64,000 bases of DNA from a virus (lineage: Duplodnaviria; Heunggongvirae; Uroviricota; Caudoviricetes): positions 49,251 to 113,250 of IMG/VR virus record IMGVR_UViG_2718218135_000001; one strand, 5' to 3'. Of the stretch, positions 4,063 through 52,444 are shown in pieces. Made by a program: the position numbers and the translations under genes. Below the pieces are notes generated by a model. That model saw only the letters and a list, made by a program, of their open reading frames with translations. It made no database searches and was not told the DNA's origin. Every line of letters begins with the position of its first letter. Position 1 is the first letter of the stretch.

Positions 4063-4526
4063 AGTATGACTCGCATCAGTTTAAGCGTGCTGGCGACAGA
4101 CTCAATAACAGCCAGAAAGCCTTTAAGCGTTATCTCATTCGTGACATGGAGAAGCTGGCGCGTCTGGTTGAGCGTCTGGCGCGGGCAATGGCTCCGCTGG
4201 AGACTGGCTCACTCGAAAGCGCGATTTTCGCGAGAGTTGTCAAAGAGGGCTATACGGGGCTGCGTATTGAGTTATCGGTGTCTGGGGCTAAACCGCGCGA
4301 AGGGAACCCTGGTGTTGAGGTTGGCGATTATGCGGAGTACATGGAGTTGGGCAAGTATCGTCTCGGCTATCTCTCCCGCATGAAGAGCGTCACCAACCCG
4401 CCAGTTGCTGGTGTGAAGCCACGCGTTGGGCCTTTGTTCCTTGAAAGAGCGGCACAGGTCAGTGAGAAACAGTTCGCTCAGACGATAGCTGAAGCAGCAA
4501 GGAAAGCAGGTTTTACGAGAGGTTGA
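4053..4526 (+). CDS. hypothetical head-tail joining protein
   Basis: ATG at 4053 with GGGGCAAAC upstream; translationally coupled to flanking genes. Confidence 0.35.
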   Translation: MGLKYDSHQFKRAGDRLNNSQKAFKRYLIRDMEKLARLVERLARAMAPLETGSLESAIFARVVKEGYTGLRIELSVSGAKPREGNPGVEVGDYAEYMELGKYRLGYLSRMKSVTNPPVAGVKPRVGPLFLERAAQVSEKQFAQTIAEAARKAGFTRG

Positions 4527-41258: not shown

Positions 41259-41984
41259 TAATATGTATAAGATCACTTTGTTTTCGTTGAGATGCGACTG
41301 TTTGAACGTTAAATATAACTGCAAACGAAGATGCATACCTGGCAGTAGCCTAAGAAGCCAAACACCAGCGAGGTCAGTTTCCAGCCTCGTCACCAAAATG
41401 GGACACACTGAGCGAGTGTGATTGCAGAACGCAGAATAGGGCATATTGCACCATCCATGCCCTATTCAATGAAGTAACAGAATGGGCGGTTGGTTTCATC
41501 ATTCCATTCACCCATCCCGGTTTCAGCTGACCGTCCATTCTGTTACGTCATTTCCATTACTTATGTCGTTTATACTTGGGTTAAAAGCGGCGACGTAACC
41601 CGGCTGACTTGGTTAGTCAGCACATAACGTTGAGATCACTGATTTTTCTTAAAATCATACAGGCGATTCCACATAGCTGTAGCGACTGATCAATATGTTG
41701 GGTTGAACATTAATCGGTTCAGTGATCTCAACGTTGTGAAAGCAGGATTAATTAACCCTCTAGTGAAAACATTGTTGCCTTTATTGCCCCTGGCTTCACA
41801 ACATGTATGATTCCATACATCTAATAAGATCGAAGAATCTAACGGCAATCAACCACCGAGAAAGATTCCAGATCTTCGCTCATATGAGCGAGCCACATAC
41901 CTTGTCTGGCACTAACGTAAAGTGCAAGTTGCGGGAAAGTTTCTGGCTGCCTGGTTGTCCATAAGCTAGTACCGCCGCGAATAT

Positions 41985-42059
41985 GATGGTGTAGCTCAGT
42001 GGTAGAGCGGTTGACTGTTAATCAACTGGTCGGTGGTTCGAGTCCACCCACCATCGCCA
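41985..42059 (+). tRNA. tRNA-Asn (anticodon GTT)
   Basis: Cloverleaf by hand: acceptor GATGGTG/CACCATC, D-arm GCTC..GAGC, anticodon stem GTTGA/TCAAC with loop CTGTTAA, T-arm GGTGG-TTCGAGT-CCACC, discriminator G, CCA encoded; differs from E. coli tRNA-Asn as I recall it. Confidence 0.75.
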
Positions 42060-42213
42060 ACATAGCGCTGAACGGTTTGGATTCGCCACCACCGTCCGAA
42101 CGAAAGACTCCGCAAATGTCGCCAGACCGTTCAGCGCTGTGATAGACACGGCAGACGTTTTTTAACCATTGCTTCTAAGCATCGTAGCAACACTTTTTTC
42201 AGCGCAAAATCCA

Positions 42214-42235
42214 AAGGGGCTTCGGCCCCTTTTTG
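42214..42235 (+). terminator. rho-independent terminator
   Basis: AGGGGC-TTCG-GCCCCT followed by TTTTT. Confidence 0.6.
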
Positions 42236-42313
42236 CTATCAAGTCGCATATGCAACCAACTTTTTTTAGCTTATAGTTAAGTTCAGTAGTAGAATGCTAC
42301 GCTTCGTCGAGAA

Positions 42314-42829
42314 ATGACGATTATGGAGTCTATCGTGAAATTTAAAATCCAGCATTTGCAGGCAGCAGTGGCACTGGTTCTTGCCAGTATCCAGCCGCAA
42401 CCCAAAGCGGTTGCGTGTCAGCCTACGATTGTAGAACGGGTTTATGAGATGGGCGCTAGAGTCAACAAAACCGACATCAGTGATCTTACAGCTGCTCTCA
42501 ATGAATTGGCTAAAGAACTGCGTTCAAGCCGCGCTGAACTTGCTCGTTATGCTGACACTGACTTCTTTGCTGCTATCAAAGTAGCGGAAGAAATTAAGAA
42601 TCAAACTATTCATGTAGCCGGTATCGCAGAATCTTTTGTTTTGATGTTACCTGAAAAAGACGTCATCATGTCTTACGACAAAAACACTGTTGAGTTTGCG
42701 TTTTTTAAAGCTATTAAAATGGTCAGTATTGCGACCAAAAACTATCTCAATCTGATTGATCAGATTACACACACTTCTGTAGTGCGTGACTCTGGTGTCA
42801 ACCTTTTAGCCATGAACCATTCTAGCTGA
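42314..42829 (+). CDS. hypothetical protein
   Basis: 171-aa ORF after terminator; TAGAAT -10-like element upstream. Confidence 0.4.
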   Translation: MTIMESIVKFKIQHLQAAVALVLASIQPQPKAVACQPTIVERVYEMGARVNKTDISDLTAALNELAKELRSSRAELARYADTDFFAAIKVAEEIKNQTIHVAGIAESFVLMLPEKDVIMSYDKNTVEFAFFKAIKMVSIATKNYLNLIDQITHTSVVRDSGVNLLAMNHSS

Positions 42830-42997
42830 ACTTTAGCGATCGTCATCTTCTTCATCATTCTTTTTCTTCTAACAAATCATTCTCATCAATCTGGCTCAGA
42901 TGGCATTCCAAAGTTGGCGTTATTAGGCGCTTTTTACTATTTAGCGTTTAAGATGGTTTGTCTACATAATTTATTCAGAATTTACGTAAGCTATATA

Positions 42998-43030
42998 AAT
43001 GATTCCATACTTGTAAGGTATGGAATCATT
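42998..43030. repeat. perfect 13-bp inverted repeat (AATGATTCCATAC-N7-GTATGGAATCATT)
   Basis: Exact palindrome about 100 bp upstream of recombinase gene; ATGATTCCATAC core also at 40787 and 41807. Confidence 0.6.
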
Positions 43031-43128
43031 TTCAAAAACAGTCTATTTTACTGTTGATCATACAAAACTTAGGCCTAACATACTGTTTATAAATACAGTA
43101 AAAACAGGCTTCACTCAGTGAGTGGACT

Positions 43129-44232
43129 ATGAAAAACACTTTTGATAAAGCACGCGCAGCAGAAAACACCTCTAGAGAAGCCATCGAGTATCTCGAACGC
43201 GCTTCCGGTTTGTCAGCAGTGTCGACCACCAATTTCGACGGTGACATGTCGTTTTCTTCCGCATTCATGTTATTCACTCGCTTATCTTTGCTGATAACGA
43301 GACGTCGACCTGAAATAGCTGTTCATTGTATTTTGATACATGTAATGCCGCATATCTGTGAAGTAAAAGTAAGTGACATTAGTAGGGTTTTAGTCAACCA
43401 GCTGGTGAACCCATTAATACTTGAGGGCAAGATCGTCCAGGGCAGACGTGTGTTCTCGCTGATGAAGCAGTTTCTCAGTTGGTGTGCATTTCAGGGCTTA
43501 ATTGATACATCCCCATTGAACGATATGTCGCTTAACAGAGTAGCCGGTGGCGCGAAGCCCACGCCGCGCGAGCGCAAACTGACCGACGCAGAGGTCTGGG
43601 TCTTTTGGAATGTATGGGACTACTTCAACGTATGTGAGGGTACAAAGTGGGCGGCCAGATTATGCCTTGTAGCGGCCAGACGACCAGATGAAGTGCTCCG
43701 AGCTAAAAGATCAGAATTCAACCTCGAATATAATTTATGGAATCAAGGAACGAGGAATAAATCGGCTCGCCAGCACTCGTTACCATTAAGCCCGCTAATG
43801 CGCAAATGTGTTGAGGAGCTGATCAAATACGGAAAAGGCAGCCAGTGGCTTGTTCCTTCAAACAAGAAACAGGGTGAGGATGTGCCAATGTCTAAGGTGG
43901 CCATATCACAGGCGTTGAGAAGGATTTTAGAACGTCCAGAGTTGATGGAGCTTGAGCCATTTACTCCCCGAGATTTGCGTCGTACTGCGCGTAGTTACTT
44001 CCCCGCGTTAGGCATAAGTCAGGAGGTATCCCGCAAAATTATGAACCACAGTCTTGAGGGGATAGATCGAGTATACGATCGACACGATTATATAGACGAG
44101 ATGCGAGACGCCTTAAACAGTTTTTCGGCGTACATCGCATCAATCGTAGAGAAACAGGATTTAGAGGAGATAGATCATAAGTTCAAGGGAGATCGACTCG
44201 CTACTGAGCTAATCCGTGTAAATTTCTCATAG
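43129..44232 (+). CDS. tyrosine recombinase / integrase
   Basis: C-terminal catalytic region RDLRRTARSYF ... MNHSLEGIDRVYDRHDY (R..H..R..Y pattern). Confidence 0.65.
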   Translation: MKNTFDKARAAENTSREAIEYLERASGLSAVSTTNFDGDMSFSSAFMLFTRLSLLITRRRPEIAVHCILIHVMPHICEVKVSDISRVLVNQLVNPLILEGKIVQGRRVFSLMKQFLSWCAFQGLIDTSPLNDMSLNRVAGGAKPTPRERKLTDAEVWVFWNVWDYFNVCEGTKWAARLCLVAARRPDEVLRAKRSEFNLEYNLWNQGTRNKSARQHSLPLSPLMRKCVEELIKYGKGSQWLVPSNKKQGEDVPMSKVAISQALRRILERPELMELEPFTPRDLRRTARSYFPALGISQEVSRKIMNHSLEGIDRVYDRHDYIDEMRDALNSFSAYIASIVEKQDLEEIDHKFKGDRLATELIRVNFS

Positions 44233-44616
44233 CGACTTGATTGCCTCAACAACCCGCTCCGACGCACCACGTTGGTCACCGAAACGTCGACGGAAGGCTT
44301 CCAGAACTAGTTTTTCATCTTTAGTCAGAGGGGCTGTGCCTTCGTCGCGAAAAAACTCTAACAGCTCTGGATGACGCTCTTCCAGCACCATTAGCATCAA
44401 TCGGACCGAATCGGCATCCAATGCTTTAGCCAACGCTCTGACCTTGTCGATCGGAAGCGGGATTTTGCCGCTCTTGATAAGTGAAAGATTGTTAGGATTT
44501 TTATAGCCTGCTTCTTTCGCGATGGTCGCCTGGCTTTTCGGAGAAATCGCGATTAAAGCGTCAATGTAAGCAGCGTAGCGACCTACTTTAGCTTCTGTTA
44601 TTTCGTTGGTAGCCAT
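44227..44616 (-). CDS. HTH transcriptional regulator (candidate repressor)
   Basis: HTH-like QATIAKEAGYKNPNNLSLIKSGKIP; divergent from 45198 operon with motif B in the shared region. Confidence 0.45.
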   Translation of the reverse strand: MATNEITEAKVGRYAAYIDALIAISPKSQATIAKEAGYKNPNNLSLIKSGKIPLPIDKVRALAKALDADSVRLMLMVLEERHPELLEFFRDEGTAPLTKDEKLVLEAFRRRFGDQRGASERVVEAIKSL

Positions 44617-44872
44617 AATTATCAACCTGCGTGTTTTGATTTTATATGGTAAGTGCTTACTGATATTACATCAAAGGTTAGTGTTGTAAAGACTTATCTA
44701 TTTTTTTTCGTAGAGTTATTGACCGCAAAAGGCTTCATTAATAGACAACTATCTAAAAAACAACTCATTTAAGAACTTAAAACTAAGTTGTATTTGATAT
44801 ATAAGTATTCCGTATTGATACAATAGGTAGTAGTATTGCAAGGCATTTACGTGTTCAGTTGGATGATATGAA

Positions 44873-45085
44873 ATGAAAAAAATAACTTCTAATTTGATCG
44901 CCCTTGAGGTCGGACATACGGTTTCAATTGACGATGATGGGGCAGCAGCCATACTCACTGAACTGCCAACAAAGTCTTTGTTACTTGACATGAAAGACGC
45001 AACCGCATACATCTTTGAGCTAAAGGGCAAGTGCTTCACTCTCATCAATACCGGCTGCGGTTCAGTAGCCGTCCGCACTATTTAA
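44873..45085 (+). CDS. small hypothetical protein
   Basis: 70-aa ORF in AT-rich divergent region. Confidence 0.2.
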   Translation: MKKITSNLIALEVGHTVSIDDDGAAAILTELPTKSLLLDMKDATAYIFELKGKCFTLINTGCGSVAVRTI

Positions 45086-45163
45086 CACACCCCTCCCATC
45101 CTCTCTAGCGCCTGTACGAACAGATTAGATGCCTGTTCGTACAGTGATAAATTACGCACATCA

Positions 45164-45179
45164 GAAAACAAATTGTTTT
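45164..45179. promoter_or_regulatory. conserved intergenic motif B copy (GAAAACAAATTGTTTT)
   Basis: Palindrome 19 bp upstream of VWA gene ATG at 45198. Confidence 0.5.
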
Positions 45180-45197
45180 AACAACAAGGAAATTCTA

Positions 45198-47426
45198 ATG
45201 TCCAAAAAAACCACCAAAGCTGTACTGAAAGAGGTGCAGGATTTTCGCGACTGTGTAAAACGAGTTGTAGCGATGCTTTCAGGTAAACAGATACCTGTTG
45301 CAGAACGAGGCAATGAAGCATATGTCCGCTATAACCGGCGCGGCGAACCAGTGCTGGTAAACATCCCATCTATACCGGACGACGCGTCGCCAACCCTCAT
45401 GAACGCAGTGCGTGGTTTTCTCGACCATGAGGTGGCCCATATTCTCTTTACTGAACCGAAAGTCGCAATGCAGATGCGCGAAAGAGGAAAGGCTCCGTCT
45501 ACGGGGCTTTGGAATGCGCTGGAAGACGTTTTTATTGAACGCAGAATGGGGCAGGTCTTTAACGGAACCCGGCGTAATTTACTTGCAACACAGAGTCTGG
45601 TTATCGACAAATACTTCAGGAATAAAGTACCAGAAGCGGTTTTAGCCTGTCACGGAGACCAGCGTGAATTGTTTTTGAAATTCTTCCTTTGCCCGGTCGT
45701 CCGCGCCTGGGATGGACAAAGCCCCTTCATCGATTTTATGGAAGAACACTGGCGCCTTATCGAGAGGCCGGTAGCCTTACTAAAGGAGCATGGTATAGAC
45801 GTGGCCGTTCGCAATATGTCGAACACTGAGGATTGCGTGAAGGTCGCTGCTGCTATAGCCCAAATCATGCAGGATATGAAAGACAAGCCAGAGGGCAAAT
45901 TACCAGAACTTAAATCATCTGCCAGAAAGCCGTCGGAGAGCAAAGACGAGTCCGAGGAAACGCCAGAATCAGGTGACGAGCCGTCTCATGGTGACTCTGC
46001 ATCTAAGCCTGCCAAAGGCGAAGGCGATGACAAGGAAGAACGAGAAGATGATGCATCAGAAGAGGAAGATTCTGGGGATTCCGATTTGCCTGATTCGTTA
46101 GATAAGGACTTACCTACACACGTTAAAGATATTAGTGATACAGAAAGTAAATATACAGAAGCAGGCCACGAAGAGTCAGGAGACACCCCAGAATCCGATG
46201 CTATCGGCATGAAATCAAGTGACTCTGACACTGATGGTGATGACGGTGAGGACTCCGATACTGATCGTGGGGAAACTGAAGAAGACGTCGAAGGCAAAAA
46301 AAATAAAGATGGTGCGGAAGTGCCCAAAGACAGTGAGTCTGGCTTTGTTCCTGCGCCGGATGAAATGACTCTGGAGGAGGCGCTAAAGGCGCTCGACGAG
46401 ATGGAAGACGGAATCGGTGAAATGACCGAAGACGCACTGTCGGCCACCATCAGCAAAGAGCTTATGAGCGTCTCACCTTCTGATTATCGGCCATACGATC
46501 GATCATACGACTTTATCGGGTTGATTGATGGAGCCGAAGAGCATGTGAAGCGCACCAGAAAGACGTTCGGTGCAATACCAATGCACTCACCAGTCGACCG
46601 CTACCGTATGGTGCCAGAAGGCAGAAAACTCTTTGAACTGAAAATCGAAAAACATCTGTCTGCAGGCGTTTCTTCGACGCTGGCCAAAGACCTGGAGCGG
46701 GCCATCGCCAGCCGCAACCGAGTTCAGTTTATACCTGGTCAGAGGCGTGGGCGGATACATGGCGCGAGCCTGTATCGTCTGGCAATGAACGACGACCGAG
46801 TGTTCCGCAAGAAGGAAGACCATAGAGCGGTGAACGCGTGTGTCCAGCAGGTCATCGACTTGTCCGGCTCAATGGATGGCGTGAAGATTCAACTGGCCCT
46901 AGCCAGTGCCTATACCATTGCGGATGCTTTAGATCGTATCAATGTCCCCAACATCATCACCGGCTTTACCACGTTCGGTAGCCCAGATTATGAAACCAGG
47001 TCGAAGCGCGGGTTTACACGCTTCGAGGCGCTCATGCTGCCCATTATCAAAAACTGGAATGAGAAAGCAAACTCTCCAGAGATCCGTGCTCGCATGGGAT
47101 GCGTATGTGAGACGTTCCCACTGCTCAATAACGTCGATGGTGAGAGTGTCGCGCAACTGGCTACCCTGTTTGCAGGGCGAATGGAGGACAAAAAGATCAT
47201 GCTGGTTATGAGTGATGGGGAGCCATGTGCTACAGGTAGTGGATTCCATCAGCATTTACGAACCGTCACCAAAGAAATTGAGACCTTGAGCGACATCGAA
47301 CTGATGGCTATCGGCATTCTGACCGACGAACCACGGCGTTACTACAAAAATTACGCACTGGTTAACAGTGTTGAAGAGCTAGGGCCGTCAGTCGTCACTG
47401 AGTTATCTCGTATCATTCTTGGGTAA
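45198..47426 (+). CDS. VWA-domain protein (CobT-like) with long acidic tract
   Basis: MIDAS motif DLSGSMDG; Asp/Glu/Ser-rich region about 45950-46400; ATG at 45198 preferred. Confidence 0.55.
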   Translation: MSKKTTKAVLKEVQDFRDCVKRVVAMLSGKQIPVAERGNEAYVRYNRRGEPVLVNIPSIPDDASPTLMNAVRGFLDHEVAHILFTEPKVAMQMRERGKAPSTGLWNALEDVFIERRMGQVFNGTRRNLLATQSLVIDKYFRNKVPEAVLACHGDQRELFLKFFLCPVVRAWDGQSPFIDFMEEHWRLIERPVALLKEHGIDVAVRNMSNTEDCVKVAAAIAQIMQDMKDKPEGKLPELKSSARKPSESKDESEETPESGDEPSHGDSASKPAKGEGDDKEEREDDASEEEDSGDSDLPDSLDKDLPTHVKDISDTESKYTEAGHEESGDTPESDAIGMKSSDSDTDGDDGEDSDTDRGETEEDVEGKKNKDGAEVPKDSESGFVPAPDEMTLEEALKALDEMEDGIGEMTEDALSATISKELMSVSPSDYRPYDRSYDFIGLIDGAEEHVKRTRKTFGAIPMHSPVDRYRMVPEGRKLFELKIEKHLSAGVSSTLAKDLERAIASRNRVQFIPGQRRGRIHGASLYRLAMNDDRVFRKKEDHRAVNACVQQVIDLSGSMDGVKIQLALASAYTIADALDRINVPNIITGFTTFGSPDYETRSKRGFTRFEALMLPIIKNWNEKANSPEIRARMGCVCETFPLLNNVDGESVAQLATLFAGRMEDKKIMLVMSDGEPCATGSGFHQHLRTVTKEIETLSDIELMAIGILTDEPRRYYKNYALVNSVEELGPSVVTELSRIILG

Positions 47427-47442: not shown

Positions 47443-47465
47443 AATAAGTAACTACTTACTATACA
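47443..47465. promoter_or_regulatory. conserved intergenic motif A copy (AAAATAAGTAACTACTTACTATA)
   Basis: AAGTA / TACTT arms; about 55 bp upstream of AAA+ gene. Confidence 0.5.
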
Positions 47466-47521: not shown

Positions 47522-48757
47522 ATGACCGCTACTGCACTACAGCAAGAAGAACATTTGCCGGAAGCCATCGTCTGCAAGTGGTGTGGCAAATCCTTTCATT
47601 ACCTGAAATCCCATATCTCTATGGGCCGTTGCGAGAATATTCCTGAGTCTGCGAAGGGTCTGGACGTGGACGAAGTGGTGAAGATGTACACCTCTGCGTT
47701 TCCAGATGAACCAACGATCTCTCGCACGGCACTGGCCAAACTCAATGAGAAGCGTGCCGAAAAGCATTCAGGCGAAGGAAAAGTAGCGGAGATTAGCGCA
47801 CATCCGGGCTACGCAGGAACGGTCGAATACAAGACCGAACTGGTGGCCGCGCACGAGCTGCTTGGCGTAACGATCAAAGAGCTGGGTACACCACGCGGAA
47901 AACCACTACAGGTGACAGTCAACGTCAACACGCCCTATCCGGAGTTCGTACCTGAAGCGAAGAAAAACTATGTGTATGGCGACTTCGACCTGATCAAGGA
48001 CATCTTTATGATGCTGGAAATCGGAATCCCGGGTTATCTCTGGGGCCATGCAGGAACCGGTAAATCTTCTCTTCCTACGCAGCTATGTGCCCTGCTAAAT
48101 CGACCACTGATCCGCGCCCAGCATACGGCGTCTATGGAGGAAGCGCACGTTACAGGCCAGATCCTCGCTCGCGATGGTTCCACCTATTTCGAACCGGGTT
48201 TACTAGCGCTGGCGATGAAAAATGGTTGGGTTTACCTCGCTGATGAATATGACTTCGCGTTCCCGCAGATTCTGGGTGTGTATCAGCCAGTTCTTGAAGG
48301 AGAGCCGCTGATCATCAAAGAGGCAACTGCGGACTGGCGCCGCATCACCCCGCATAAACGCTTTGCCTTCATTGGCACTGGCAACACTAACGGCTCTGGC
48401 GACGAAACAGGTCTCTATCAAGGCACAAACATCCAGAACGCAGCGAACTTCTCGCGTTTTGGCATTGTTTCAAACGTGAAGTACATGAGTACGAAGGCAG
48501 AAGTCAACATGCTGGCTGAAGCAGGCGTCATCCGCGAATACGCCGAGAAGATGGTGAAGTTCGCGAATCTTATCCGTGAAGGTTATGAAAAGCATCAGAT
48601 TAGCCAGCCAATCGGGCCTCGTGAGCTGCTGCTGTCCGCCAAAATCGGAATGATGCGCGGTGATTTCTCTGCCGGCATCGAAAAGTCGTTTATCAATAAA
48701 CTTCCATCCACGTCTGCACAGGCAGCGCGTGAAGTGGTTCAGAAGATCTTTGGTTAA
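47522..48757 (+). CDS. AAA+ ATPase (MoxR/CobS-like) with N-terminal zinc-ribbon
   Basis: Walker A GHAGTGKS, Walker B VYLADEYD; CKWCGKSFHYLKSHISMGRC zinc motif. Confidence 0.6.
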   Translation: MTATALQQEEHLPEAIVCKWCGKSFHYLKSHISMGRCENIPESAKGLDVDEVVKMYTSAFPDEPTISRTALAKLNEKRAEKHSGEGKVAEISAHPGYAGTVEYKTELVAAHELLGVTIKELGTPRGKPLQVTVNVNTPYPEFVPEAKKNYVYGDFDLIKDIFMMLEIGIPGYLWGHAGTGKSSLPTQLCALLNRPLIRAQHTASMEEAHVTGQILARDGSTYFEPGLLALAMKNGWVYLADEYDFAFPQILGVYQPVLEGEPLIIKEATADWRRITPHKRFAFIGTGNTNGSGDETGLYQGTNIQNAANFSRFGIVSNVKYMSTKAEVNMLAEAGVIREYAEKMVKFANLIREGYEKHQISQPIGPRELLLSAKIGMMRGDFSAGIEKSFINKLPSTSAQAAREVVQKIFG

Positions 48758-48937: not shown

Positions 48938-51900
48938 ATGAAGGCTCTGATGGTCAGAACTGACTTCTCCCTGGGAGAGTCAGCTCTAAAAGCAGAAAAC
49001 GCGGTGAAAATCGCGAGAGACGCTGGCTACACCGCTGTCATTTCCGCTGACAGCATGAACATTGCCAGTGTGATCCCCCTGCAGCGTGCCGCTGGCGACG
49101 ACATGGCGGTTATTTGTGGTGTTAAGCTGAATGTGGTCGACGATCCGACATACGAGCATCGCGCCCGCCTGGCGAAAGAGTCAGGAGGATGTATGGAATC
49201 ATTGGTGCGTGATCGAAGCTACTGCTTCACGGCACTGATAAAGAATGAGCAAGGTTATCGCGACGTGTGCGAACTGATGACCTTAGCCAACAAGCGCGAG
49301 CAATTCTACTTTGTTCCGCGTCTGGCACTTGACCAGCTGGCGGCCGCATATGCCAAAGGCAACATCATCCTGCTGACGTCCGACATTGGCAGTGTATTCC
49401 AGCGCCGGGACTTCGCAAAGATTATCGGGACGCTGGTGACAGCTGGAGGACGCGATAACTTCTACAGCGTGGTTTATCCGCACCCTACCCCATTCTACGA
49501 CCAGATTAACGTCCGGGCGATGAAAGTGGCGAGCGCACTGAAAATAGAGCCAGTGGCGTTCTATCCCGCTTATTACGAAGCGATCGACGACGCTGACATT
49601 AAAGACATTGCGCACATGGTTACGAACAACATCAAAATCGACCAGCCGCATCGTCTGCGCATCCCCCACCAGCGAGATAACGCTGTTAATGGTCGTCGCC
49701 ATCTCCTTGAAGCGCTGAAAGCCTTCTCCGTTCGCATGGGCGTACCGGTAACAGCTGCAATGGTCTCAACAACGCAGGACACCATTATTGAAGCCTGCAC
49801 ATGGCGCTGGCATGAACTGCCACCAGCACTGCCCAAGATGGCAGACGACGAGCCTGCAACGCTGATGAAGCTGGCTGTCGCGGGGCTACGCAAGCGTCTA
49901 ACTACTAAAGAGTTTGGCTACACACCACCGGCTTCTGAGCACCGAGTGTATGTTGAGCGACTGAAGTACGAAATGGACACACTGACCCGTCTGGGCTTCT
50001 GTGGCTACTTCCTGATGGTACGCGATCTGATGAATCACAGCCGTGAAACAGGAATACCGGTTGGGCCAGGTCGTGGTTCCTCTGCCGGTTCTCTGGTGGC
50101 GTGGTGCATAGGCATAACCAACGTCGATCCTATCCGTCACGGTCTTCTGTTTGAGCGTTTCATCAACCCTGAACGTCTTGACTTACCGGATGCGGATCTG
50201 GACTTCAGCCAGGCACGTCGTCATGAGGTGATCGAGTATCTGAATGAACACTATGGCGAAGATTACGTTGCCGGTATTCCAAACTTCACCTATCTGGGCG
50301 CCGCTTCTGCGCTGCGAGACACTGCGCGTATTTACGGTGTCGACGCTGCGGATATGTCGGTATCCAAAGAGTTCAAGAATCTGGAAGACGATAGCCTGTC
50401 TCTGGAAGAGCTGCGCGAGCAACTGGCCAGCCTGGACAAATACGCCACGAAAAACCCGGAAGCGTTCAAAGCGGCGTGTAAGCTGCAAAGCCTGATGCGT
50501 GGTTTTGGTCGTCACGCTGCGGGGATGATCGTCGCTGGCGTTCCACTGGTAGAGCGCACGCCCGTCGAGCTGCGTGGCAACGCTCGCTGTATTGCGTTCG
50601 ATAAACGTTACTGCGAGGCGATGGGGCTGATTAAGCTGGACGTTCTCGGTCTGGCAACGCTCGATCTGCTGGATAGCGCGAAACGCTACATCAAAGAGAG
50701 TACCGGGGAAGACATCAATCTCGATGCTATTCCACTGGACGATCGTAAGGTTCTGGATGGGTTCGCTGCAGGGTACACGCAGGGCGTATTCCAGCTGGAG
50801 TCCGGCCCCATGCGCAAGCTGCTTAAAGATCTGGGCGGTGGCATTGAGCCAATGAGCTTCAAAACCGTTGTCGCCACGACCGCACTCTTCCGACCTGGCC
50901 CGATCCAATCCGGCATGTTGGACGACTATGTCTCCGTGGCCAAAGGCTTCATGGCTCCACATTCAATTCATCCGCGTCTTGAGGAAGTCACCCGGGAGAC
51001 TAATGGTGTTTTGCTCTATCAGGAACAAATCATGCAAAGTTCCCGAGTACTTGCCGGGTTCTCTATGGCCGAAGCAGACGCTCTGCGTTCCGCTATCGGT
51101 AAAAAGAACATGGATAAGATGAAAGCGATCGGCAGCGATTTTGTAGAACGAGCACAAGCAGGCTGGGTGACACTGTCACTCAAAAATGGAGGTACTGTAG
51201 AGGTTCACAAACACGCAAAACTGGATTGCTCAGACGGTAAGCGTAGAAGCTACAGCGAGGCTATTAGTGACGGCATAGACTACGTGGAGATCGTCTCTGA
51301 ACAAGAAGGTCTCAGTAAGGAAAAAGCCCAAGAAATATGGGACGCCTTTGAGAAGTTCGGTGGATATGCCTTCAACAAATCACACAGTGTTGCTTATTCT
51401 TTAATCAGCTATCAGTCTATGTGGTTAAAGACACATTACCCTGCTGAGTTCTTCGCTGCTGCGCTCACCATTCTGGGCGAGGATAAGCACCAGGGGCTGG
51501 TTAAGGATGCGCTGACCTATGGCATTCGCGTATTGCCACCAGACGTTAACGTGTCATCTAACCGAATTGAGATCCGCACGCTGGAAGACGGCAGTCAGGT
51601 TCTGTATGCACCATTCTCTGCTGTGAAAGGCTGCTCTGAGAATGGTTGCCAGGCCATCATGAGAGCGCGTGAGAAAGTTGGCGGCAAATTCGAGTCACTT
51701 GAGCAATTTGAGGAAGCGGTCGAGAAGCGTGCATGTAACAGCCGGGTACGCGAATCACTGCAAAAAGTCGGTGCGTTCGCATCGATTGAGTCTGGCAGTC
51801 TGCCAGCGACAGATCCGGAACGGCTGCGCGACCAGGCAGAGTTGATGGGTAATCTGGTGATCGACGCTGTAAAAGCCTCTCGACCGTTCGAGATGAACCC

Positions 51901-52444
51901 TAAGCGCTCTGCTGAAGTAAATGTACTGATGACGCGCATGGCGGCCGAAATGGGGCTGGGAGACGATCTAATCCGTCCAAGCATTGGTATTAAGCCAAAA
52001 ATCATGGTTATTCTGGACAACGCGAACGGCAATGATGGGCGTACCGGCTACTTCATGGAGAACGGTTACGACGACTTTAAGGCGAAGTTGCTTACTGCAG
52101 GCGATCTGCGTATGGGCGATCTCTACGTCACCGGCGTGTGCAAAAAGGTGAAGGACAAAGAGAAGGACTACACCAAAGACGAGATCGGTCAGTTCACCGA
52201 CTTTATGCGTGAAGAGATCAATCTGGTGCGTCCGACCTATGTACTGACGTGTGGCAGCCGGGCGACGTCGCTCTTCAACAACAAGAGCAAACCATCCGAC
52301 CTGGTTGGACGCAAAGAGTATCTGCCGGAGCTGGATGCGACCGTTTTCTACGGATTTAACCCGAATATCCTTTACTTCCGACCGGAAGAAGGAGAGCGAC
52401 TGGAGGCCATTCTGACTGATATTGCGGAGACGATAAATAAGTAA
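48938..52444 (+). CDS. DNA polymerase III alpha-type (DnaE-like) replicative polymerase
   Basis: GYFLMVRDLMNHSRETGIPVGPGRGSSAGSLVAWCIGITNVDPIRHGLLFERFINPERLDLPDADLDF matches DnaE palm signature; 1168 aa. Confidence 0.8.
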   Translation: MKALMVRTDFSLGESALKAENAVKIARDAGYTAVISADSMNIASVIPLQRAAGDDMAVICGVKLNVVDDPTYEHRARLAKESGGCMESLVRDRSYCFTALIKNEQGYRDVCELMTLANKREQFYFVPRLALDQLAAAYAKGNIILLTSDIGSVFQRRDFAKIIGTLVTAGGRDNFYSVVYPHPTPFYDQINVRAMKVASALKIEPVAFYPAYYEAIDDADIKDIAHMVTNNIKIDQPHRLRIPHQRDNAVNGRRHLLEALKAFSVRMGVPVTAAMVSTTQDTIIEACTWRWHELPPALPKMADDEPATLMKLAVAGLRKRLTTKEFGYTPPASEHRVYVERLKYEMDTLTRLGFCGYFLMVRDLMNHSRETGIPVGPGRGSSAGSLVAWCIGITNVDPIRHGLLFERFINPERLDLPDADLDFSQARRHEVIEYLNEHYGEDYVAGIPNFTYLGAASALRDTARIYGVDAADMSVSKEFKNLEDDSLSLEELREQLASLDKYATKNPEAFKAACKLQSLMRGFGRHAAGMIVAGVPLVERTPVELRGNARCIAFDKRYCEAMGLIKLDVLGLATLDLLDSAKRYIKESTGEDINLDAIPLDDRKVLDGFAAGYTQGVFQLESGPMRKLLKDLGGGIEPMSFKTVVATTALFRPGPIQSGMLDDYVSVAKGFMAPHSIHPRLEEVTRETNGVLLYQEQIMQSSRVLAGFSMAEADALRSAIGKKNMDKMKAIGSDFVERAQAGWVTLSLKNGGTVEVHKHAKLDCSDGKRRSYSEAISDGIDYVEIVSEQEGLSKEKAQEIWDAFEKFGGYAFNKSHSVAYSLISYQSMWLKTHYPAEFFAAALTILGEDKHQGLVKDALTYGIRVLPPDVNVSSNRIEIRTLEDGSQVLYAPFSAVKGCSENGCQAIMRAREKVGGKFESLEQFEEAVEKRACNSRVRESLQKVGAFASIESGSLPATDPERLRDQAELMGNLVIDAVKASRPFEMNPKRSAEVNVLMTRMAAEMGLGDDLIRPSIGIKPKIMVILDNANGNDGRTGYFMENGYDDFKAKLLTAGDLRMGDLYVTGVCKKVKDKEKDYTKDEIGQFTDFMREEINLVRPTYVLTCGSRATSLFNNKSKPSDLVGRKEYLPELDATVFYGFNPNILYFRPEEGERLEAILTDIAETINK

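Follow-up and report, generated by a model that had tools for sequence, protein, structure and literature searches.

A conserved helix-turn-helix gene module and a dispersed DNA dyad as candidates for lysogeny control in SSU5-type phage-plasmids

Introduction

How does a phage that is maintained as a plasmid keep its lytic genes silent, and what might release them? This question is raised by a locus of about 3 kb within a 64,000-nucleotide stretch of a tailed-phage genome (IMG/VR record IMGVR_UViG_2718218135_000001, positions 49,251 to 113,250), which we refer to as the window and in whose coordinates positions are given unless another genome is named. At the center of the locus lies a gene for a 129-amino-acid helix-turn-helix (HTH) protein. 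The 3 kb around this gene are at least 99% identical to many Escherichia coli plasmids of ~105 to 120 kb (e.g., CP058032.1), and the window is akin to the phage-plasmid Cyrano (pLF82) and to Salmonella phage SSU5; it is therefore part of an SSU5/pHCM2-type phage-plasmid. The SSU5 supergroup includes pHCM2 of Salmonella Typhi, pMT1 of Yersinia pestis, in which F1 capsule genes lie beside the module described here, and many antibiotic-resistance-carrying elements in E. coli, Klebsiella, and Enterobacter. We found no experimental study in the literature of how members of this supergroup choose between plasmid maintenance and lytic growth, nor any experimental work on this HTH regulator.

A sequence-only reading of the window had proposed that the HTH gene and an operon encoding VWA, AAA, and DnaE proteins diverge from an AT-rich region and together form a repressor and early-operon switch. 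Here, we ask what the HTH protein is likely to bind, which genes it is paired with, and where a signal for induction could enter. Our comparisons single out the HTH protein as the most promising candidate for a repressor that maintains lysogeny in the SSU5/pHCM2/pMT1 phage-plasmids and acts through a dispersed dyad that we call M1, a reading that we consider quite possible, if still short of probable. The repressor idea itself is not new, since "putative repressor" is the published annotation of the Cyrano ortholog.

Results

The M1 dyad is dispersed over the window and marks the predicted start site of the HTH gene

M1 has the family consensus RGTAAG-NN-CTTACY and is often extended to palindromes of ~22 to 26 bp. 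A position weight matrix recovered 12 sites in the window (1818, 4919, 11428, 18238, 22000, 26746, 37630, 41237, 44648, 47447, 53591, and 58365), compared with ~0.2 per strand in shuffled sequences, and 11 of the 12 lie wholly within the 9.2% of the window that is noncoding (p ~4e-12). Copies are found ahead of both early and late genes, and most are preceded by a -10-like hexamer. Some sites lie inside transcribed 3' regions instead of promoters. The copy at 1818 (within 1818-1880), for example, sits between the stop codon of the open reading frame (ORF) at 931-1806, which is the major capsid protein gene by its position relative to Cyrano, and a canonical intrinsic terminator (GGGTGGGC..GCCCACC-TTTTTT).

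The copy that bears most directly on the HTH gene (44227-44616, minus strand) is GGTAAGTGCTTACT at 44648..44661. A promoter scan predicted an HTH promoter on the minus strand at 44663..44690 (-35 TTTACA, 44690-44685; -10 TAATAT, 44668-44663), and this dyad begins one base downstream of the -10 hexamer, at the predicted start site, where we propose that it serves as an autoregulatory operator. When we aligned 10 lineages (alignment A3), both promoter hexamers and the M1 core were invariant; the dyad reads GGTAAGTGCTTAC(C/T) across lineages and is a perfect GGTAAG-NN-CTTACC in 7 of them, and the center of the spacer between the HTH gene and its neighbor, ORF70, is not conserved. In the distant relative L090, M1 again lies downstream of a -10-like hexamer (TATATT) and upstream of the HTH gene. 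The "motif B" that the sequence-only reading placed in this region was left undefined there, although the region does hold copies of two genome-wide motifs: M1 and a second one, M2 (45164-45179), to which we return below.

M1 tracks the HTH gene across clades

Other phage-plasmid lineages have homologs of the HTH protein at the equivalent point in their genomes, with 31 to 39% identity across the full length. In the Rhizobium phages RHph_X66 and RHEph10, the HTH gene is followed on the same strand by a small ORF, cobT, cobS, a sigma factor gene, and dnaE, with CopG and RepC genes pointing away on its other side. RHph_X66 (120 kb, 59% GC) shares synteny with SSU5-like elements and encodes RepC, ParA, and ParB, and is therefore probably a phage-plasmid too. 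Its genome holds 40 copies of AGTAAG-NN-CTTACT where ~1.5 would be expected, and the copies that we sampled lie in gaps between genes, including those upstream of the small ORF, cobT, and cobS. In this phage (L093-L095) the dyad is extended to TA-AGTAAG-NN-CTTACT-TA and lies downstream of one of two different conserved elements, GCGCTATAA among the early genes and CTTGCAAGTA among the structural genes.

Plasmids of the Acinetobacter AB group carry an HTH homolog that is 39% identical, in an arrangement in which the HTH gene leads into recombinase and ParA genes and diverges from a small ORF, cobT, and cobS. Here, the dyad takes the symmetric variant form AGTCAG-NN-CTGACT, with 7 copies in 27.5 kb where none is expected (positions 4087, 6218, 6671, 7060, 13964, 19164, and 22690 of A. 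baumannii plasmid NZ_CP026705.1, L098); the HTH gene and the small ORF both have copies upstream, and the gap separating cobT from cobS is occupied too. The window has a dyad between cobT and cobS as well (47447..47460), and the same position is occupied in the Rhizobium and Acinetobacter relatives. Two further phages are syntenic, and in the 50 kb examined of each we detected no HTH homolog: Pseudomonas phage nickie, with no recombinase or Rep gene in its annotated stretch, has 0 copies of M1 in 50 kb, and Stenotrophomonas phage BUCTxx99, with no Rep gene in its annotated stretch, has 1 copy in 50 kb, counts that are at or below chance.

The dyad thus tracks the HTH gene in three clades, is missing in the two clades where no HTH gene was detected, and changes symmetrically in one clade where the HTH protein has diverged. 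This circumstantial pattern is the strongest available argument that the HTH protein would bind M1. We also looked for covariation between the recognition helix and the dyad: the helix varies from clade to clade, but not in a way that yields a simple code.

These same sites allow for a different explanation, in which most transcription units begin with M1 as part of the promoter core or the 5' leader (for example, as a short 5' hairpin or where a lytic-phase factor binds), and in which the HTH promoter is one of this class. M1 does follow -10-like hexamers at many sites, and in RHph_X66 it follows either of the two conserved elements named above; it precedes early and late genes alike, and its sequence holds across hosts that are very far apart, in contrast to that of typical immunity operators. 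However, it is lacking from the 50-kb regions examined of nickie and BUCTxx99, two syntenic lytic phages that would need such promoters or leaders as well; as a perfect DNA dyad around a 2-bp center, it would make a poor RNA hairpin; and the change in Acinetobacter, symmetric on both sides, is as expected for a site read by a dimer. Moreover, the lytic growth of SSU5, which has lost the HTH gene (see below), is what would be expected if the HTH-M1 pair is repressive and dispensable for lytic growth. We therefore regard the promoter-core explanation as distinctly unlikely.

The HTH protein has a predicted XRE-type fold

The HTH gene is present as the sequence-only reading had described it, and its product matches the PHROG family phrog_8, "transcriptional regulator" (E 4.9e-11). 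Searches found no Pfam-A match at E <= 0.01, no NCBIfam match at E <= 0.1, and nothing significant in a sequence search of the PDB, so the identity of the protein rests on PHROG, a profile search, and its predicted fold. The profile search returned 1,480 relatives, mostly 125 to 160 amino acids long; of 10 relatives scanned against Pfam, 5 gave weak matches to HTH_3, HTH_19, HTH_31, or HTH_37, most of them below the Pfam cut-offs. A putative recognition-helix stretch, NNLSLIKSGK, is nearly invariant across 19 family members.

An AlphaFold model of the protein is a five-helix XRE domain (predicted local distance difference test [pLDDT] score 80 to 90 for residues 11 to 80) followed by a C-terminal 45 residues predicted, with low confidence, to form a helical tail. 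The model superposes on C.AhdI with a template-modeling (TM) score of 0.79 to 0.83 and a root mean square deviation (rmsd) of 1.7 to 1.8 Å over 65 residues. The fold matches, which include C.AhdI, C.Esp1396I, ClgR, and the N-terminal domain of Stl, have target-normalized TM scores of 0.7 to 0.83 and rmsd values of 1.7 to 3.5 Å, with Foldseek E-values of only ~0.02; the SPC32H repressor (5d4z) is also among them. According to this model, the protein has an XRE-type DNA-binding fold. A Pfam scan of the 129 amino acids found no Peptidase_S24 domain, and the protein is therefore not of the self-cleaving CI/LexA family.

Recombinase, HTH, and ORF70 genes form a conserved module

On one side, the HTH gene converges on a plus-strand tyrosine recombinase ("integrase") gene (43129-44232; Pfam PF00589 Phage_integrase, 36.2 bits against a cut-off of 27.1; PHROG integrase, E 7.5e-46), with which it overlaps by 6 bp; this recombinase has no sequence relative in the PDB. 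On the other side lies ORF70 (44873-45085, plus strand), the 70-amino-acid ORF of the sequence-only reading, which proved to be a real conserved gene (PHROG phrog_2627, E 9e-32) and is the true divergent partner of the HTH gene. Downstream follow, all on the plus strand and as that reading had it, genes for a CobT-like protein with CobT/CobT_C and VWA domains (45198-47426, E 1e-108), a CobS-like AAA_5 ATPase (47522-48757), and DnaE, the DNA polymerase III alpha subunit (48938-52444; ORF call and annotation of the closest plasmid), with a 67-amino-acid ORF between cobS and dnaE.

The same order of convergent recombinase and HTH genes followed by ORF70 and cobT is found in Cyrano, Enterobacter, pHCM2, pMT1, Cronobacter, and pECOH89, as well as in Escherichia albertii, Shigella, and Klebsiella elements. 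Among plasmids in PLSDB, 827 carry CobS and 822 carry the HTH gene (counted at >=80% query coverage), and the counts match genus by genus. The distant relative L090 also has the recombinase-HTH-ORF70 module, with an HTH protein that is 40% identical. By these comparisons, recombinase, HTH, and ORF70 constitute a conserved three-gene control module that is core to the SSU5/pHCM2/pMT1 family.

SSU5 has lost the module by deletion

SSU5 is the sole HTH-less family member that we found, and it is also the only member described as virulent (PMC5427195). BLAST and alignment showed that SSU5 runs from tRNA-Asn (41985-42059 in the window, Rfam) directly to cobT: its homology with the window ends at 42101 and restarts at 45069, leaving 2,977 bp missing (segment 42102-45068). 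Comparison with SSU5 also revealed a 10-bp direct repeat at the two ends, with a left copy (CCGTCCGAAC) at 42092..42101 and a right copy (CCGTCCGCAC), at the deletion junction, at 45069..45078; the junction copy in SSU5 itself is at L002 6001-6010. The loss removed a variable ORF of 171 amino acids (ORF171, 42314-42829), the recombinase gene, the HTH gene, and most of ORF70, and left intact the stretch between ORF70 and cobT and the cobT operon.

Alternatively, the 3-kb segment could be a foreign integrative element, consisting of a recombinase and its regulator, that inserted downstream of tRNA-Asn, with SSU5 representing the empty site. The direct repeat does flank the segment, ~35 bp downstream of the tRNA gene, and the cargo upstream of the recombinase differs between relatives. 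The module, however, keeps its location in ~822 of 827 plasmids and also in the distant L090, and HTH homologs lie next to cobT in the Acinetobacter and Rhizobium relatives. Given this distribution, a deletion between short repeats in SSU5 is far more parsimonious, and we reject a foreign island at tRNA-Asn as extremely unlikely. Since nearly all relatives, including L090, have the module, SSU5 is best read as a short-repeat deletion mutant and, in effect, a natural HTH knock-out.

The Cyrano ortholog of the HTH gene is expressed in lysogens

The HTH protein is 66% identical to CYRAN_45 of Cyrano. Most phage genes are silent in Cyrano lysogens, and CYRAN_45 stands ~10-fold above the prophage background in lysogeny broth (LB), at 96 normalized counts against a median of 9.8; the authors of that study list it as a "putative repressor" and putative master repressor (PMC9928086). 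It is the only family-wide classical HTH regulator clearly expressed in lysogens. Both Cyrano and its relatives respond to DNA-damaging drugs: ciprofloxacin raises Cyrano virions 39-fold (PMC9928086), and mitomycin C induces SSU5-like elements (PMC9600943).

We then compared the genes of the locus using the published expression values for Cyrano in strain LF82 (PMC9928086, S1 Table; log2 fragments per kilobase per million mapped reads [fpkm]), which cover LB, medium at 1 h and 6 h, and macrophages at 1 h and 6 h. In that order, the values are 5.6, 7.9, 6.1, 8.9, and 10.3 for the recombinase; 6.6, 9.2, 7.5, 10.3, and 9.9 for HTH, where the strandedness of counting is not stated in the methods and the values may include antisense reads; and 4.3, 7.0, 6.0, 8.7, and 10.8 for ORF70. 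For the downstream genes they are 2.9, 3.3, 4.0, 5.2, and 5.9 (cobT), 2.7, 3.5, 3.4, 3.9, and 5.1 (cobS), and 3.3, 4.4, 4.5, 4.6, and 4.5 (dnaE). From these values, recombinase, HTH, and ORF70 co-vary. The ORF70 ortholog rises ~90-fold in macrophages, an SOS-inducing niche, and the RNA level falls ~30-fold from ORF70 to cobT (10.8 versus 5.9 log2).

Expression in lysogens is also where another explanation finds its footing, namely, that the HTH protein acts only locally, on its own gene or on the recombinase and ORF70 genes, in which case the element would encode its master repressor at another locus and M1 would be the site of some other protein. Two other regulators, both encoded outside the window, are expressed in Cyrano lysogens: CYRAN_98 (89311-89700), a LexA-like, S24-peptidase-like protein, at 148 counts, and CYRAN_114 (100780-101301), a transcriptional regulator. 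Both are candidates for alternative players in the control of induction. In addition, the recombinase, HTH, and ORF70 genes form one co-varying unit that is uncoupled from cobT through dnaE, and HTH genes beside recombinase genes often regulate them. A purely local role is harder to reconcile with the best and most conserved copy of M1 lying at the HTH gene's own predicted start site, with the way M1 and its Acinetobacter variant track the HTH gene across clades, with CYRAN_45 being the sole family-wide classical HTH regulator clearly expressed in lysogens, and with the described virulence of SSU5, which has lost the module. On balance, we consider a local role somewhat unlikely, and retain the HTH protein as the candidate repressor acting through M1.

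A LexA box overlaps the predicted recombinase promoter

The adjacency of recombinase and HTH genes that the sequence-only reading had pointed out holds, and the recombinase promoter has a feature which that reading did not see. Alignment of the upstream region (alignment A2) predicts a sigma-70 promoter at 43054..43081 on the plus strand, with -35 TTGATC and -10 TAACAT (TAATAT in most relatives), the conserved form being TTGATC-N16/17-TAATAT. Overlapping its -10 hexamer and start site, at 43081..43100, is a LexA (SOS) box, TACTGTTTATAAATACAGTA, that agrees with the consensus TACTGT-N8-ACAGTA at 18 of 20 positions, with 0 such sites expected by chance. It is the only CTGT-N8-ACAG in the 64-kb window; of 90 related loci, 79 have this sequence in the corresponding position, and between lineages the arms are conserved and the spacer drifts. 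A conserved box of this kind on the promoter of a convergent, overlapping gene suggests that the HTH gene could be under SOS-driven antisense or read-through control.

Just upstream, at 43000..43028, lies an inverted repeat with perfect 11-bp arms and a 7-bp spacer, TGATTCCATAC-N7-GTATGGAATCA (alignment A2), which occurs once in the window. Over 10 lineages its arms are invariant and its spacer is variable, and the arms are kept in L090. By its form and position, it is a candidate lox/dif-like core site of the adjacent recombinase, and this 11-7-11 site probably serves plasmid multimer resolution. A sub-threshold Rfam match of the inverted repeat to the GAIT family was dismissed as chance.

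The slot between tRNA-Asn and the recombinase (42102-43000) is taken up by lineage-specific cargo. In the window it holds ORF171, in the closest plasmid (L001 5308-5862) a YafO toxin-antitoxin pair, in pMT1 (L005 1-1143) the caf1 F1-capsule genes, and in Cyrano the gene CYRAN_43, whose expression is 723-fold over background. PADLOC gave no defense-system match among six proteins (ORF171, recombinase, HTH, ORF70, CobT, and CobS), and an Rfam scan of 41900-45300 found no known RNA family apart from tRNA-Asn.

The cobT operon is a separate unit downstream of ORF70

The ~580-bp AT-rich region from which the HTH gene and the cobT-cobS-dnaE operon had been read to diverge is 581 bp long (44617-45197), with 37.2% GC compared with 48.3% for the whole window. 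As 213 bp of it is the coding sequence of ORF70, the genuinely noncoding parts are 256 bp on the HTH side (44617-44872, 29.3% GC) and 112 bp on the cobT side (45086-45197). ORF70 is 50% identical to its Cyrano ortholog and equal in length to it, has no Pfam, NCBIfam, or PADLOC match, and is preceded by a conserved block on the plus strand (TGATAT..TATTCC..TATTGATACAAT..TAGTAGTAT, 44793..44838, alignment A3), which we read as its probable promoter/operator. No homology to ORF70 was detected in the small ORFs that occupy the same position in the Rhizobium phages.

Between ORF70 and cobT, at 45112..45144, is a hairpin on the plus strand with a 12-bp stem, a perfect inverted repeat, and a 9-nucleotide loop. 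Across relatives it shows 2 compensatory pairs as well as several G-U substitutions for which pairing is possible in the plus-strand RNA alone, and its folding z-score is -3.9. It is not followed by a U-tract, for which reason we rejected it as an intrinsic terminator, and a terminator scan of 44100-45400 found none. Its arm, CTGTACGAACAG, was considered as a repeated motif and discarded, being present only at the hairpin itself; nor is the arm a LexA box, since its spacer is N4 and not N8. The position of the hairpin coincides with the ~30-fold drop in RNA in Cyrano. Processing, attenuation, and noncanonical termination are possible functions of the structure.

M2, GAAAACAAATTGTTTT at 45164..45179 on the plus strand, follows 34 nucleotides upstream of the cobT ATG. 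Its core, AAACAANTTGTTT, has three perfect copies in the window (24601, 27530, and 45166), far above chance, and M2 is conserved in relatives including SSU5 (alignment A4). Written as AGAAAACAA(A/G)TTGTTT, the motif stands exactly 34 nucleotides before the start codon at two of the three places, cobT and a dnaB-like gene; its remaining copy is upstream of a parA-like gene. As the hairpin and M2 are both kept in SSU5, neither depends on the HTH module.

These observations bear on the proposal that the HTH protein directly gates the VWA/AAA/DnaE operon as a replication or copy-number switch. In its favor, the HTH gene adjoins the small ORF-cobT-cobS array in the Enterobacterales, Acinetobacter, and Rhizobium elements, and cobT, cobS, and dnaE are at background in Cyrano lysogens. 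However, ORF70, the conserved hairpin, and the distinct M2 motif all lie between the HTH promoter region and cobT, the ORF70-cobT stretch and the operon are intact in the HTH-less SSU5, RNA drops ~30-fold from ORF70 to cobT, and replication in the plasmid state proceeds via RepA, which is expressed in lysogens. Direct gating is thus very unlikely, and the HTH gene and the operon do not stand as a divergent pair. Instead, cobT-cobS-dnaE is a separate downstream unit with its own sites (M2 and M1), consisting of core lytic-replication genes that are present in lytic relatives and silent in the lysogen. The half of the switch proposal that finds support is the candidate repressor: a family-wide gene at a divergent, conserved promoter/operator region, with a lysogen-expressed ortholog, and lost in SSU5.

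Discussion

We propose a mechanism in which a dimer of the HTH protein would bind the M1 dyad. Binding at its own predicted start site would make the gene autoregulated, and binding at a dozen or more copies in the short intergenic gaps before early and late operons would keep the prophage silent, in a manner like that of P1 C1 or of stoperators. Because the HTH protein lacks an S24 domain, yet the elements are SOS inducible, an SOS signal would most plausibly enter through the LexA box on the convergent recombinase gene. Upon DNA damage, a plus-strand transcript from the recombinase promoter would cross the overlapping HTH gene in the antisense direction and probably extend into ORF70, to end or be processed at the hairpin. 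No intrinsic terminator was predicted from the recombinase gene to ORF70, so a LexA-derepressed transcript could read through HTH into ORF70. Antisense transcription would then lower repressor synthesis and at the same time yield ORF70, a possible Coi-like inactivator or anti-repressor. Read-through as far as the hairpin would explain why the recombinase and ORF70 are induced in parallel and why RNA drops before cobT. We regard this antisense and read-through part of the model as rather unlikely.

Several observations, in addition to the lysogen expression of CYRAN_98 and CYRAN_114, weigh against the mechanism or against the HTH-M1 link on which it is built. The co-occurrence of the HTH gene and M1 is based on three clades with the gene and two without, and it is confounded with lifestyle, since the clades that have the HTH gene also carry plasmid-maintenance genes; the counts for nickie and BUCTxx99 cover 50 kb of ~110 kb each, around cobT, cobS, and dnaE. 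M1 is almost unchanged between the Rhizobium and enterobacterial elements, which is unusual given that immunity operators normally diversify, and which would be in keeping with a role in the promoter core or 5' leader, or with binding by some other conserved protein. The copy of M1 upstream of the intrinsic terminator at 1818 means that M1 is not everywhere a simple promoter operator, and the orientation of the HTH gene in the Rhizobium phages, where it is co-oriented with the small ORF, cobT, and cobS, is odd for a lysogeny repressor. With respect to induction, L090 has the module and no LexA box, and the structure model of ORF70 is uninformative (pLDDT 47.6). HTH RNA also goes up, not down, in macrophages; since counting may be unstranded, this rise speaks neither for nor against antisense control.

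The arrangement invites comparison with several known systems. P1 is a plasmid prophage silenced by C1, a repressor of ~283 amino acids whose many asymmetric 17-bp operators are spread around the genome and are present at the repressor gene itself as well. Coi, a C1 inactivator of ~70 amino acids, is encoded beside the repressor gene; P1 also has the Cre/lox system, and its induction passes through the Ant/C4 immI circuit. The likeness to the present element lies in the plasmid prophage state, the dispersed candidate operators including one at the repressor candidate's own gene, the neighboring gene of ~70 amino acids, and the tyrosine recombinase with an inverted-repeat site. The element differs from P1 in that the protein here is a much smaller, 129-amino-acid XRE-type HTH protein, that M1 is a symmetric dyad, and that we saw no equivalent of the Ant/C4 immI circuit. 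The stoperators bound by gp71 of mycobacteriophage L5 are similarly many, short, and spread through intergenic gaps genome-wide, and some of them are transcribed, as is M1 at 1818. Unlike the M1 dyad, however, those sites lack symmetry and have an orientation; the two proteins share no homology, and L5 integrates.

For the input side, the closest parallels are Tum of coliphage 186, AntC of N15, and Ant of Gifsy and SPC32H, in which, as here, a repressor without an S24 domain is combined with a LexA box on another promoter and with induction by ciprofloxacin or mitomycin C. They differ in that the LexA box here is on the recombinase promoter and that we found no recognizable antirepressor gene. 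Face-to-face promoter interference in 186 and P2 resembles the convergent antisense and ORF70 route that we propose. The LexA-regulated integron integrase IntI, with attI, shares the LexA box over a tyrosine recombinase promoter and a recombination site immediately upstream, but the element described here has no gene cassettes or attC sites, and its recombinase is of a distinct family with a lox/dif-like 11-7-11 site.

In its most general form, our model would have one ancient pair, the 129-amino-acid HTH protein and RGTNAG-NN-CTNACY, silencing whole phage-plasmids in Enterobacterales, Acinetobacter, and Rhizobium. Induction in the enterobacterial elements would then proceed by a LexA-gated recombinase transcript running antisense through the repressor gene, with ORF70 as a co-transcribed inactivator, and would involve neither repressor cleavage nor a classical antirepressor; the recombinase-repressor gene pair would thus contain an SOS switch that works by convergent transcription. 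As a whole, this generalization is speculative, and we would call it unlikely.

We found no description in the literature of an M1 regulon and its phyletic link to the HTH gene, of the LexA box on the convergent recombinase promoter, of the lox-like site, of the SSU5 deletion junction, or of a cobT operon separate from the switch. Our analysis puts names to the parts: a candidate repressor, a candidate operator set, a candidate SOS input, and, in SSU5, a natural knock-out. If the link between the HTH protein and M1 is true, the silencing of hundreds of clinical plasmids would be accounted for by a single protein and a single 14-bp site, and the pair would offer a handle for curing or inducing plasmids of the SSU5 supergroup.

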